Below are positions 19,821-51,114 of a DNA stretch of 64,000 nucleotides, in pieces. A program made the translations under genes and the position numbers. The notes under the pieces were generated by a model. The model was not told where the DNA came from. It made no database searches and saw only the letters and a list, made by a program, of their open reading frames with translations. Every line of letters starts with the position of its first letter. Position 1 is the first letter of the stretch. The stretch spans positions 43,152,001-43,216,000 of the forward strand of contig CM126209.1 in NCBI GenBank assembly GCA_052327205.1, read 5' to 3'. The DNA comes from Somniosus microcephalus. Taxonomy: Eukaryota.

Positions 19821-19931
19821 CAGCGATGCTACTTAATGAATTCCTTTCAATATAACAAGCAAACAGCGTTTGAGGTGTTCACAATTCAGATGAATCCACA
19901 GGAGCTCAAGTGCATAACTCTAATCCAAATC
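19821..19931 (-). other. CTBP1: 5'UTR portion of the CtBP exon, containing a short uORF (19886-19915)
   Basis: Acceptor TCAAATTTCCTTTCAG| before 19931; uORF ATG CAC TTG AGC TCC TGT GGA TTC ATC TGA. Confidence 0.7.
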
Positions 19932-22145: not shown

Positions 22146-23017
22146 TAATTAAATATAACATTACTTGTAGATCACAATGTATGCAAAGACCCCATAGACA
22201 TTGAAAATAAATGCAGTATCTCAGCTTTCTGTCAGTCTAATTACTAAGCCAGACAACCATATTTACTAATCCAAGACCAGTTTGCTGTTAGAGCTGATTG
22301 GATCATTATATGGTATTGTAATCCTGTAAGTACCTGAACTGCCGTATTAGTAACACAGCCAAAGGAAATGTCTCTTAACGCCCAAGATACTTGAAGGACT
22401 GTTAACGCGCTGGTGCACAGTATTAAACTGTATAACCAGCCAGGGAAATGTAGGACATACTCAATCATTGCACAGAACTTGTACTAGAACAGTTCCACTG
22501 ATACTTAACATATAAAAATAACAGTATTCATTAACATGCTCTAGAAGACAGGCTACCTGATCATTCAGAATGTAGATTTATGTCAGGGGAAATAAAGTAC
22601 ATTTTAATAATTAAAGGATTTCTATTTATCTGCTGGAACAATTAAAGAGACTATCCTGTCCAAGTGCTTCCAGAAGAGGACAGTAATATAATTTGAGCTC
22701 TTGAATTGCTATGCCTTTTTAATGCCGAAGATTACAGAGCTGAAGTGGAGAAATGCATAGAACCTGGCTCCTTTTCTGCAGTTGTTCTGAATGAAGTCGG
22801 TTTATTTCTATCATATTCTGCACATAAAAAAGAAAGCTATTTTTCATCCCAAAGCATGCAGCTGATTTTTACGTCAGCCATGTGAAGGATTGAGTGGCAC
22901 AATGTGTTGCAAACTAAATTGTCCCTTCTGCTCTGAAAACATTGTTCAAATCCCATCCGGAAGGAAGGGATCAAAGACAGACTTTACAGTCTACTCCTGA
23001 TAATTCCGTTATTTTAT

Positions 23018-43374: not shown

Positions 43375-44161
43375 TCTATCTATATATATAAACCGGTACG
43401 TCTCTCTGTCTGTCTGTCTCTCTGTCTGTCTGTCTGTCTGTCTGTCCGGCTATACAATCAAAAGTTATAGAGCGTACCTACACGTATGTTATATCAAAAG
43501 AAACCTTATCGTTAGGGGACTCTCGTAGGCGTATTTACTTTTTCATCAGACAAAAATTGTTTGGACAGTATACAAAAAACGTTCAAAAATCCGCAAAAAT
43601 CCACTCATTAGCGGTTGACCAATCCTACCTCTCATTAGCTTTGAGTGACGTGCTGCTTGACCAATCCTACAGTTCACTCACCTGATGGTTGACCAATCAG
43701 TGCGTCACGGGCGGGTCCTAATCCTCCAGTCTCCCTAAACTTCGCTGCCATTTTTTCCATCCCCACAGGGACAGCAGCAGCAAAAGAAACCCCCACATTG
43801 CGGCTCCCGATCCCGCTCCCGCCCCGCCAGAGCGGCAGGTAAGTTGGGCTCACTCGGGCCGCGCCTCGCAACCGCTCGGCCCGACACACACAGCGGTCGG
43901 GGGAGCGGCAGCGGCCGGCCATCAGCCACGCAATCCGCGGGGGAGCTCAACTCGGGTCTGTCTCGGCCCTGAAGCGCTAGGCCCCGCACGGCCGGTATCA
44001 CAACGGCACCGGGCCTCAGGCGCTAGGCAGGGAGAGGGGAGGGGAGGGAGCGAGAGGACAGCACAGGGAGAGGGGGAGAGGGAGAGAGAGGGGGGACAGA
44101 CAGGGGCAGGCAGACCGCGCGGCCCAAAATTGCCCTGGCAACGCCAGACACCCCCTGCTAG
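43375..44161 (+). mobile_element. Non-autonomous Helitron with promoter-like cargo
   Basis: 5' A|TCTATCTATATATATAAA, (TGTC)n microsatellite 43401-43446, 3' hairpin CTGGC-AAC-GCCAG (44135-44147) 10 nt before terminal CTAG|T; inserted between A and T with no TSD. Confidence 0.88.
43615..43844 (+). promoter_or_regulatory. Pol II promoter-like cassette and first-exon donor inside the Helitron
   Basis: TTGACCAATC three times (CCAAT at 43619, 43661, 43693), CRE-like GTGACGTG (43645) and TGCGTCAC (43701), GC box GGGCGGG (43709), YY1-like GCCATTTT (43747), donor CAG|GTAAGT at 43838/43839, followed by CpG-rich sequence. Confidence 0.65.
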
Positions 44162-44220
44162 TGTATGTATAAAAATGTTGCATCGAGTGTGCACTTCATC
44201 GTTCACATTTCAGGCTTTGT

Positions 44221-44285: not shown

Positions 44286-44357
44286 AAATTTCATATTCAT
44301 AAGGCAGCACTCAAATCACAAGTGGTGACATAGGGAACGTATAAATCAATTACAGTA

Positions 44358-45370
44358 TCGAATTACAGTATGCAGACGACGCTTGTGTCTACGCTCACTC
44401 AGAGGTCGAACTCCAAGCCATCGTCAACACCTTCACCGAAGCGTACGAGAGCATGGGCCTTACACTAAACATCCGTAAGACAAAGGTCCTCTACCAACCT
44501 GCCCCCGCCACACAGTACTGCCCCCCGATTATCAAAAATCAAGACAAGGCCTTGGACAACGTGGACCACTTTCCAAACCTCGGGAGCCTACTGTCAACAA
44601 GGGCAGACGTCAATGACGAAGTCCAACACCGCCTTCAGTGTGCCAGTGCAGCCTTCGGTCACCTGAGGAAGAGAGTGTTTGAAGACCAGGACCTCAAACC
44701 CGGCACTAAACTCATGGTCTACAGAGCAGCAGTGATACCCGCCTGTTGTATGCCTCAGAGACATGGACCATGTACAGCAGGCACCTCAAAGCACTGGAGA
44801 GTTACCACCAACGCTGCCTCCGCAAGATCCTGCAAATCCATTGGCAGGATAGGTGCACCAACATCAGTGTTCTTGCTCAGGCCAACATCCCCAGCATCGA
44901 AGCTTTGACCACGCTCGATCAGCTCCGATGGCCTGGTCACATTGTCCGCATGCCCGATACAAGACTCCCAAAACAAGCGCTCTACTCGGAGCTCCGGCAC
45001 GGCAAGAGAACCCCAGGTGGGCAGAGGAAATGCTTCAAGGACACCCTCAAAGCCTCCTTGAAAAATTGTAACATCCCCACTGACACCTGGGAATCCCTGG
45101 CCCAAGACCGCACAAAGTGGAGAAGCATCCGGGAAGGCGCCGAACACCTTGAGTCTCTTCGCCAGGAGCAAGTAGAAGCCAAGCGCAGGCAGTGCAAGGA
45201 GCGCACATCAACCCAAGCACCCCACCCACCCACCCACCCCTTCAACCACCGTCTGCCCCACCTGTGACAGGGACTGTAGGTCCCGCATTGGACTCATCAG
45301 TCACCTGCGAACTCATTTTTAATGTGGAAGCAAGTCATCCTCGGTTCTGAGGGGCTGCCTAAGAAGAAGA
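44358..45370 (+). mobile_element. 5'-truncated RTE (BovB/RTE-1-like) LINE
   Basis: LQYADDAC, GLTLNIRKTKV, YASETWT..YHQRCLRKILQIHWQDR, GHIVRMPDTRLPKQALY, C-terminal CPTC..CRSRIGLISHLRTH; tail CTGCCT(AAG)n. Confidence 0.93.
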
Positions 45371-48300: not shown

Positions 48301-49463
48301 TGACAGCCGTCTGGTATATATCAAGCTGTGCTGTGTCAAAGAATGGATCTGCTCTGTGTCAGGGACTAATCTTTTTAATTAAGAATACAACATTAAATAA
48401 TAATTATTAATACATACATACAAAGAAAACAAGTATTATAACTGGTGAGAAACTAGAAGTGATTATGTTTCCCCCAATTAAACCTTCAAACCAGCCTGCA
48501 GCAGGATGATGTCAGAACATTTTGACACATTACCGTATGCAGCATGCTCTGCTCCGTGAGTCAAACTCCACTCTGAATAACATGACAGCCACAGCATTTC
48601 ATTCTGTTATAATGTGCTCTGTGACCATTTAGCGCCTGCTGGTGTAGCACTAAACTAACTTGCTTCACACAGCTGTAGTCACAGGGACAACTTCCAGCAG
48701 TGACCGAGTCTAGAACGTGTCACCCACGTGTGGTGGTGTTCATCAGTTCTTAAGGAGACCACAGTGCCACTTAGTATCTATGTCAGCTAACCTACCTGCC
48801 CTCTTCCCCCCACACCCTCAGTCTGGATTGACTCCATCGTTTAAATTGCGGTGTATTAAGGACCCATTTATTCATCTTCCAATGACAGAACATGAGGAGA
48901 GCAAAACACACACACAGAGTTCCTTTACCAATAATGCATACATTGAAAAATTAATTAACAGCAAAATCTAAGCGCTTCTCTGAGAATTTCACTGCAATGT
49001 TTTAAGACCAGTGGGAACGGGAAAAATGCAGACACAAAATGAGATTTAACCAACTCAGAACCAAAAGATTAGAAAAAAACCCTAGAAATCCTTAAGTCTA
49101 TTCCAAAAATGCTGTACCAGATGTATCTTTCTCCAGTTTTACTTTATATAATACTTCCCACTTCAAACTTACAGAAATGGAACTAACGTTCTGCAACAAA
49201 ATATCTGAATTTTAAAAGCTTGATAAACCCTACCAGCCTATGGGATCCAAAACCTTTCCTCATTTATTCCCATGTTGCACAAAAGTAAATTATGAATTTA
49301 AAAACTTTGCCAAGAAACTAGGTATTAATTTTACATAAATTTAGACGTTTGTGCAGCACAGACCACTGAATAAATGTCTGTGCCTCGTTTGTGGTAACTG
49401 AGACAATTTCTTATTCTACTTAATCCCATTAACTACCTCAGTTAACTGATGTGAAAACAGTAT

Positions 49464-50149
49464 CGGCTGAAAATTCAGTAGCCTTAGCGCCTCATTTGAG
49501 GCGCTAGAGGGCCTTGCGCCGGAGTTATGGCCAGTAGTGAAATTCCCTGGGGCCCTAAATCGGCGTTGCTCCGGTAGCGCTGCGCCGGCACCGATGACGT
49601 CATCGGTGTGCGCAGCGTCCCGGTTGCCGTGGTAACCCGCCCGAACTCCGAAATTGAGTTGCGGCCGCCTCGCCCATGGCAGCCGCAACCAGCGTTTTGT
49701 CAGAGGTGCCTTACTGCAGTTAGCGCCGGCGCATTAAAGGCCCCACGGCGGCCGGCCGCTTTCCCGCCGGCCGCCTGCCCGCAGCTCCCTCCCCGGACTT
49801 CTCTCCCCCCCACCCCCAGAACAGATGCAAGCCCGGCACTTGTCCGAGGTGCCGGGCTCATTTTTAAGCAGATTTGCGCGGGCCGCGGCCAGGTGCAGGC
49901 AGCTCCTCCTTAACGGAAGGAGGAGGCCTGCACTTCCCCAGCCTGCCGCACCGCATCGGGTGCCGCAGCGCCGGAATTGCGGCGCGAAACGGCAGTTAGC
50001 GCCCTTTTCCAGGCGCTAAGACCCTTCAGTAGCGCCGGCAGCCGTTTGGGCGCAGCGCCACTGAATTTTTGGCGCGCGCAGGGGACTTAGCGCCGGCACT
50101 AATTTCCGGCGCTAAAGCCCTGGCTAAGCCAAAACCCAATTTCTAGGCC
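49464..50149. mobile_element. CpG-rich PIF/Harbinger-type MITE
   Basis: TAT|CGGCTGAAAATT...AATTTCTAGGCC|TAT: imperfect 12-bp TIR and 3-bp TSD; many TAGCGCC/GGCGCTA inverted motifs. Confidence 0.7.
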
Positions 50150-51114
50150 TATATTTTTACAGTTTGTCTCAGTGTTAATCTAAACTTCTATTTCTGTGAC
50201 ACACTGTCACTGTAAATCTAAATGTATGTGATAACTGGCAGTGTGAGGAGGAGCTGAAGCAAGACGTGTTACCAACCAACAGCGATAAGTACCAGATTTC
50301 TTATATACCCGTGAAATATACAGAGTTCCAAAAATTAAAGCAATTATTAAATGAAATATAGGAACAGGACTATATATTCCCTAATTTCTAACTGCAATCC
50401 TCCCTAGCAGGATCAGTGTATGTGGGATATAACAACAAATGGCAGATAAGCATTAAATGTTTTCAAATTCAAACAACTCCAGTTACTTTGTGCCCAGTGA
50501 CACCTCACCAATGGATGCTCCGAACCAGCGGAGTAAGGCAATAGCTGCAGCTATACTACTCGCTCATATTACGGGCAGAGCGGGATGAGCTTTTCCAAGT
50601 AGTTTTCCCCAAGTACAGCTGCAGTGCCAGACTGACAGTTATGCAGCAGGTGCAGAAGATCAGGCTGCTGCAACACAAAACCACAATATAAGCGGAACAT
50701 TACTCATGTGGGAGTGTGTCCTATTGTTGCAAAATATCCGTTAAATTATCACTGGGCATTAATTACATGAACTAAAGGCTGCAAGCTTTAGCAAATTATC
50801 AAAATACTTTTTTTTAAATAATAGGTAGGGATCTGGATTGGCAGCATTTTATGACGTCAAACCTTACTTACCAGTCAGAGGAATTAAATATAAACCCCAA
50901 TTTTAACTCGGAGCACAAATCGGGTAGGGAAAGCAGGAGGTTCCACATGAGTTTGCCAGCGTGAGTGAGGCCTGGGCGATTTTAACTCCCGATCCTCATT
51001 TCAATATGACTGACGGGCTGACCGCTTTATTTACGCAATGTCCAGCAGGACTCCTGGGGCCTATTTAAAGCGGGAATGCAACTCTTACAGCGAAGTTGCA
51101 CTGACTGAAGACAG

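Follow-up and report, generated by a model that had tools for sequence, protein, structure and literature searches.

We found that the element on the plus strand at positions 43375/43379 to 44161 of the window (the whole 64-kb stretch of DNA analyzed here) is a real non-autonomous Helitron1 copy. We read it as a short internal-deletion derivative of a native Helitron1 lineage that carries the lineage's own promoter and that is most likely silent at this locus, and we give this reading a probability of about 0.8. The preliminary description had proposed a mobile promoter and first exon, either captured from a host gene or the element's own, that could drive spliced transcripts antisense to CtBP.

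Helitron1 elements (HLE1) are described as having a 5' TC, a 3' hairpin followed by CTRR, and an A|T target without duplication (PMC11417382, PMC4224331), and the window family has all of these terminal features. At the 5' end (43375 to 43392), an A precedes the TC start and a TA-rich run follows. Among 97 aligned copies, the A precedes TCTA(TA)nAAC in 51 of the 56 with a readable start. The start had been placed at 43375. The A|TC start stands, but its exact position is either 43375 or 43379, since the window copy has an extra TCTA that is present in just 17/56 of these copies. The 3' end (44131 to 44161) closely resembles the last 30 bases of RepHel-coding elements. The window copy terminates in CTAG|T at 44158 to 44162, as do 73 of the 76 readable 3' ends (the pattern missed 21 of the 97 copies). 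The hairpin CTGGC-AAC-GCCAG is present at 44135 to 44147, as proposed, but its 5-bp stem has decayed from the 8-bp bulged stem typical of the family, which we observed in both of the other copies folded. The window copy folded at -5.4 kcal/mol versus -7.5 kcal/mol for the family stem, and the three hairpins folded were not far beyond shuffled sequences (z, -0.2 to -1.7). In agreement with the preliminary description, we found no target-site duplication of 3 to 12 bases at the element ends, and we found no terminal inverted repeats. DNA contigs of organisms A and B (two DNA runs) both bridge the 3' junction, and neither run showed an empty A|T site. An Rfam search of the element returned two sub-threshold matches only.

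All of the interior motifs described previously were found in their places on the plus strand. The 5' end is followed by a (GTCT)n microsatellite (43400 to 43446), which varies in length among copies and occurs in RepHel-coding elements too, and by a 5' subterminal region common to RepHel-coding Helitrons (43449 to 43599), where HMM matches lie upstream of the RepHel start. A putative NF-Y array of the RepHel promoter (43615 to 43698) comprises three CCAAT boxes (TTGACCAATC at 43615, 43657, and 43689, spaced 42 and 32 bases apart and the only three in the window) with an interleaved CRE-like site (TGACG at 43646). The CCAAT triplet is an internal tandem repeat. The probable start region (43703 to 43754), collinear with the RepHel-coding element L227, holds a second CRE-like half-site (CGTCA at 43703), a GC box (GGGCGG at 43709), and a YY1-like GCCATTTT at 43747. 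Behind it lies a putative noncoding first exon (43755 to 43838), of which 43769 to 43827 is homologous to the leader of a RepHel subfamily (E, 2.7e-9). We found no ATG in 43715 to 43838. The predicted donor CAG|GTAAGT (43837 to 43844 for AG|GTAAGT, with the cut after 43838) has a GTGAG form in sibling families. The CpG-rich stretch at 43839 to 44030 would be the start of a leader intron, and its first ~100 bases are common to sibling non-autonomous Helitrons. Positions 43790 to 44030 are 73% G+C, with a CpG observed/expected ratio of 0.94 versus 0.41 for the whole window. A purine-rich low-complexity tract (44028 to 44105) varies among copies. As previously proposed, the element appears to carry a promoter-like block, a first exon, and a donor; the exon would be noncoding. 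We also considered that 43769 to 43838 might be an internal cassette exon, with CAG|G at 43768, and rejected this, since the AG is not kept in RepHel relatives.

We compared these motifs with 2,000 dinucleotide shuffles of 43450 to 44030. At least three CCAAT motifs were present in 249 of the shuffles, a GC box in 999, two CRE half-sites in 525, the YY1-like motif in 70, and an AGGTRAGT donor in 12. Taken singly, the CCAAT, GC-box, and CRE motifs are unremarkable in sequence of such composition, and the donor is rare. Several of the motif counts are thus within chance. The case for a promoter rests not on these counts but on the order and position that the motifs have in common across diverged RepHel elements.

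A search of the genome found 407 RepHel candidates, and the Helitron_like_N profile matched 150/150 of those scored. Open frames of the matches reach 2,221 amino acids. One RepHel frame matched Helraiser with an E value of 7e-173 and contains PIF1 and Helitron_like_N domains over the cutoff; this partner and the TA-rich 5' end make the lineage resemble Helraiser/Helibat1. We examined the upstream regions of 50 of the 150 listed matches, together with 12 relatives of L227 found by a search with the L227 leader. The RepHel start was in range in 27 of the 50 regions, and 19 of these 27 have their own 5' end homologous to 43449 to 43599. The CCAAT segment was found in 16 of the 19, the GC-box/GCCAT segment in 2, and the exon in 1 (L227). 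We found that 43431 to 43827 is collinear with L227 (308/426 identities; E, 3e-71), whose RepHel ATG lies ~770 bases beyond the aligned part. Among the 12 L227 relatives, 11 have a RepHel start, 10 have the exon and the start, and 9 have all four segments and the start. This collinearity with RepHel 5' ends indicates that the promoter motifs and 59 exon bases are Helitron sequence. A match to the 5' region of autonomous Helitrons had been named beforehand as the result that refutes capture, and for 43431 to 43827 it is what we obtained. Of the two origins first offered, that of the element's own sequence is the one upheld for this part, and homology makes it likely that the promoter-like block of the window copy belongs to the element.

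The 16 elements with a CCAAT segment from the first set and 9 L227 relatives gave 25 RepHel elements for comparison. Three RepHel elements with neither a CCAAT array nor an AG before the ATG were kept out of the 25; their existence indicates that the array is not required by every subfamily. The 42/32 box spacing recurs in 9/25 elements and a pair spaced 31 to 33 bases apart in 20/25. A consensus donor (AG|GTRAR) lies no more than 900 bases from the 5' end in 13 of the 14 elements with at least two boxes. In all 25, a polypyrimidine/YAG acceptor lies one base before the RepHel ATG. The leaders are 0.5 to 5 kb long, end in a conserved T-rich tract, contain upstream ATGs in 22/25 elements, and contain G+C-rich variable units similar to that of the window copy. 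Four of the five partner loci followed downstream terminate in CTAG|T behind a hairpin, nearly identical to the end of the window family. From this anatomy we infer a promoter, a noncoding exon 1, an intron, and a coding exon. Column conservation of the CCAAT pair across these elements was discarded as a line of support; the rows had been picked for having the pair, so it is no evidence.

Several other features of the RepHel matches were observed. One subfamily (L112, L114 to L116, and L077/L078) has a leader of 320 to 510 bases, lacks both the CCAAT array and an AG ahead of the ATG, and appears to be a second way of expressing RepHel. Loci L256 to L259 carry extra degenerate helicase fragments between the RepHel stop and the 3' end. 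An uninterrupted 1,580-amino-acid RepHel frame starts from an ATG at L065/L066 (G000:C2:27.02-27.03 Mb), and the many long RepHel open frames suggest a young lineage. A cluster of RepHel matches at G000:C4:135-145 Mb, C157, and C174 with the same 351-amino-acid open frame is likely a segmental amplification.

The element has been amplified, and the genome contains at least 204 copies, counted with a 26-base exon pattern (204 matches; control, 0). The best 40 of 5,659 genome candidates, the self match aside, match 43480 to 44161 nearly full length at 88 to 95%, and the median identity of the 97 aligned copies to the window copy is 92%. We read 60 of the 100 listed exon loci (of the 204 matches), picked among those new to the analysis. 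All 60 are Helitron copies with the CCAAT block upstream; 58 have the 5' subterminal region and 56 have the 3' end. The four without a 3' end are shortened or interrupted and have no RepHel link. The copies are dispersed, their flanks are unrelated, and the ends of a RepHel partner are related to theirs. Among the first 30 family loci, 5 have common flanks and are duplications rather than separate insertions. The donor context in sibling Helitron families gave 926 motif matches (control, 0). We sampled 30 of these 926 loci and found that all 30 are Helitron copies in which the GC-box segment and the ~85 bases following the donor are present, that 28 have the 3' end, and that none has a RepHel nearby. 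The earlier proposal had set many copies with Helitron ends against a single non-Helitron locus at a gene 5' end. Many such copies were found, and no stand-alone, non-Helitron cassette locus was present among the 60 exon and 30 sibling-donor loci sampled. The 3' flank at the insertion sites is A+T rich, as at Helraiser insertions (PMC4778049). Helitron copies often lie head to tail with other Helitrons (L004, L005, L009, L029, L139 to L141, L169, L183, and L187), in keeping with an A+T-rich target preference.

The donor and 43828 to 44030 have a less direct history. The alignment with L227 breaks off 11 bases short of the donor, and in the closest RepHel subfamily this place holds a weaker AAG|GTGCAG instead of a consensus donor. 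We found no HMM match to the donor and 43828 to 44030 in 62 upstream (50 plus 12) or 5 downstream RepHel regions, and no RepHel parent with the exact donor in the 30/926 sibling loci or the 62 upstream regions. These gaps would fit a mosaic, in which the element supplied the promoter and most of the exon and an ancestor captured the donor and 43828 to 44030 from a host first exon and intron; 5' gene ends are described as preferentially captured by Helitrons (PMC4224331, PMC12001565). We consider such a mosaic improbable. All of the sampled exon and sibling-donor loci are Helitron copies, a donor of their own closely follows the GC box in other RepHel subfamilies, similar G+C-rich units occur in RepHel leaders, and the 50 upstream regions represent 50 of 150 listed matches among 407 candidates. 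The simplest source of this part is an unsampled RepHel subfamily.

A capture could also lie further back: an early member of the lineage would have acquired a CCAAT/GC-box promoter from its host, along with the first exon and intron, and the lineage would have used it for RepHel from then on. The motifs are laid out as in host promoters of cell-cycle or housekeeping genes, and one RepHel subfamily has no CCAAT array. A 32-base CCAAT spacing may be typical of NF-Y arrays in cell-cycle genes. NF-Y-binding CCAAT arrays have been reported for cyclin B2, cdc25C, and thymidine kinase (PMC1802594). Against this, the boxes lie in internal tandem repeats whose number and spacing differ among subfamilies, which fits an origin within the element. 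Two genome DNA searches for a host source (best 40 of 5,659 and best 40 of 2,116 candidates) gave family copies, and no host locus was found there or among the 60 exon loci. An ancient capture is very unlikely on this evidence, and we retain the reading that the cassette is native to the Helitron1 lineage.

We asked whether the window copy shows signs of function. All of its motifs and its donor are intact. Within the family, the CCAAT boxes are kept in 87/95, 92/96, and 93/97 copies and the donor in 88/97. Background retention has medians of 0.93 and 0.89, and the boxes and donor are at this background, so we rejected selection on the motifs within the family (97 copies). CpG transitions were found at 859/9,336 sites (9.2%) versus 0.94% at other C/G positions, and CpG sites thus decay about 10 times faster. 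The protection of CpG from deamination seen in functional CpG-island promoters is absent from the 97 copies. Together with the background retention of the motifs, this decay indicates that the CpG richness reflects youth, not protection. The window copy differs from the consensus at 15 positions, 9 of them CpG positions.

As a weak test, we also looked at RNA from two stranded runs (X7 and X8) of organism A, of which 24% and 31% were read, with tissues unspecified; 15/42 joints and 24/2,142 loose ends were listed. The preliminary description had called for junctions from 43838 and starts at 43730 to 43760. No junction from 43838 was found among the 15/42 joints listed, and no pile-up of RNA 5' ends at 43730 to 43760 was found among the 10/11 rows listed. 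Sense depth on the two sides of the donor was 36.7 and 37.1 in X8 and 5.4 and 2.6 in X7. Depth on the unique flanks of the element was 0 to 0.9 in the two runs. At 43950, the private allele of the window copy was present in 0/30 reads and the family letter in 30/30. Family alleles were likewise found in 33/33 reads at 43932, 28/28 at 43959, and 92/92 at 44148; a non-family letter was found in 15/180 reads at the private site 43593 (letter not given) and in 17/307 at 43746. The family alleles in these reads indicate that the reads come from other copies. Family-level sense RNA in X8 was 268 versus 13 at 43708 to 43791; it extends over the CCAAT boxes and so resembles read-through that began at other loci. 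In the same run, 76 sense-strand molecules end at 43793 to 43794, where depth drops from 268 to 37; a truncated expressed copy, a true 3' end, or library bias are options for these ends.

Activity of the window copy is not supported by these data. The view that this copy drives spliced antisense RNA or acts as a CtBP2 regulatory element could draw on its intact motifs and donor, on the presence of the insertion in two differently labeled organisms, and on HelibatN3, a bat Helitron whose captured NUBPL promoter, exon 1, and donor demonstrate that such cassettes can trap exons (PMC4778049). The CpG-type differences from the consensus, the empty flanks, the family alleles at diagnostic sites, and the even X8 depth on either side of the donor all argue against it. 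We regard such a co-option as highly improbable and give little credence to any function of this copy; the spliced antisense transcripts first suggested are unsupported.

The antisense orientation to CtBP that had been described is correct. An ATG exon with an acceptor and donor lies on the minus strand at 19931 to 19763, and we take it to be the N-terminal exon of CtBP2. A PDB search with this exon gave no match. A further exon on the minus strand, 202 kb away, has CtBP2 as its best match (E, 2e-42), and this CtBP2 exon downstream on the same strand supports the naming. The element lies antisense, 23.4 kb upstream of the ATG exon, and probably sits in a CtBP2 5' untranslated region intron. 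Any transcripts that it produced would lead away from the coding exons of CtBP2. Beyond the element, 49451 to 50150 is the only other strongly CpG-rich stretch in the window (observed/expected ratio, about 1.0); it holds an internal 42-base palindrome and is probably another repeat. A high-copy repeat, LINE-like by reading, lies at 44357 to 45200 and has strong family-level sense RNA depth. At 44321, both DNA runs have a 17-base tandem duplication that is absent from the window. A weak minus-strand match to the CCAAT segment model at 22326 to 22415 (E, 0.0075) is either an old fragment or chance.

We propose the following history for the family. The coding elements have a 5' TC end, the microsatellite, the CCAAT array with CRE-like sites, and the GC box, and continue into what would be a short noncoding exon, a donor, a leader intron, and an acceptor before the RepHel ATG; the use of this promoter and splicing in the coding elements are presumed. 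The window family retains the 5' block up to the first exon as well as the 3' hairpin and CTAG end and has lost RepHel; it appears to have kept the donor and a piece of the CpG-rich intron too. Mobilization of non-autonomous copies in trans by RepHel is established Helitron biology. RepHel would have copied the family in this way into A|T sites at no fewer than the 204 places counted. The mutation spectrum suggests germ line methylation and neutral decay of the copies. In the window copy we most likely see a silent passenger that lies upstream of the CtBP2 ATG exon.

In comparison with known systems, the window family is unlike other non-autonomous HLE1 in keeping the whole promoter-like block, the noncoding exon, and the donor. 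It resembles HelibatN3 in having an amplified promoter, first exon, and donor between Helitron ends, and it would likewise work as an exon trap if active. However, the HelibatN3 cassette matches a conserved host gene and encodes six residues in the published account (PMC4778049), whereas the window cassette has no ATG and no transcript was seen. The host source that defines the HelibatN3 class is replaced here, at 43431 to 43827, by the RepHel elements' own 5' end, and this part of the cassette, which a capture of the HelibatN3 type would leave absent from autonomous elements, is present in them here. For Xenopus Heli1Xen1, a 5' promoter marked by ChIP peaks is presumed (PMC12001565). The available portions of the Helraiser and Heli1Xen1 accounts mention neither a CCAAT array nor a leader intron ending one base before the ATG, and this build may set the present lineage apart. 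Caenorhabditis Helitrons with heat-shock elements are described as spreading transcription factor motifs, with binding and gene activation demonstrated (PMC6927752); the window family is alike in its spread of motifs, here known from sequence. Our literature search (titles and abstract openings, with few subscription journals) found no Helitron promoter of this build and no study of such a family in cartilaginous fishes, and the dogfish genome paper names Helitron in its references only.

In itself, this locus is an ordinary copy of a transposon. A promoter-like cassette in a non-autonomous Helitron should be compared with the 5' end of the autonomous element before it is taken as captured. 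More tentatively, the lineage may express RepHel from an NF-Y-type, possibly cell-cycle-coupled promoter with a spliced leader, and its more than 1,100 scattered cassettes (204 plus 926 motif matches) may include some alternative first exons of host genes. If so, the effect of HelibatN3 would have been attained with the element's own promoter instead of a captured one. The RepHel 5' ends give a picture, at the level of sequence, of the way in which transposase expression may be driven within a vertebrate Helitron, with the CCAAT array, the short noncoding exon, and an intron that stops one base short of the ATG as candidate elements of transposase control.
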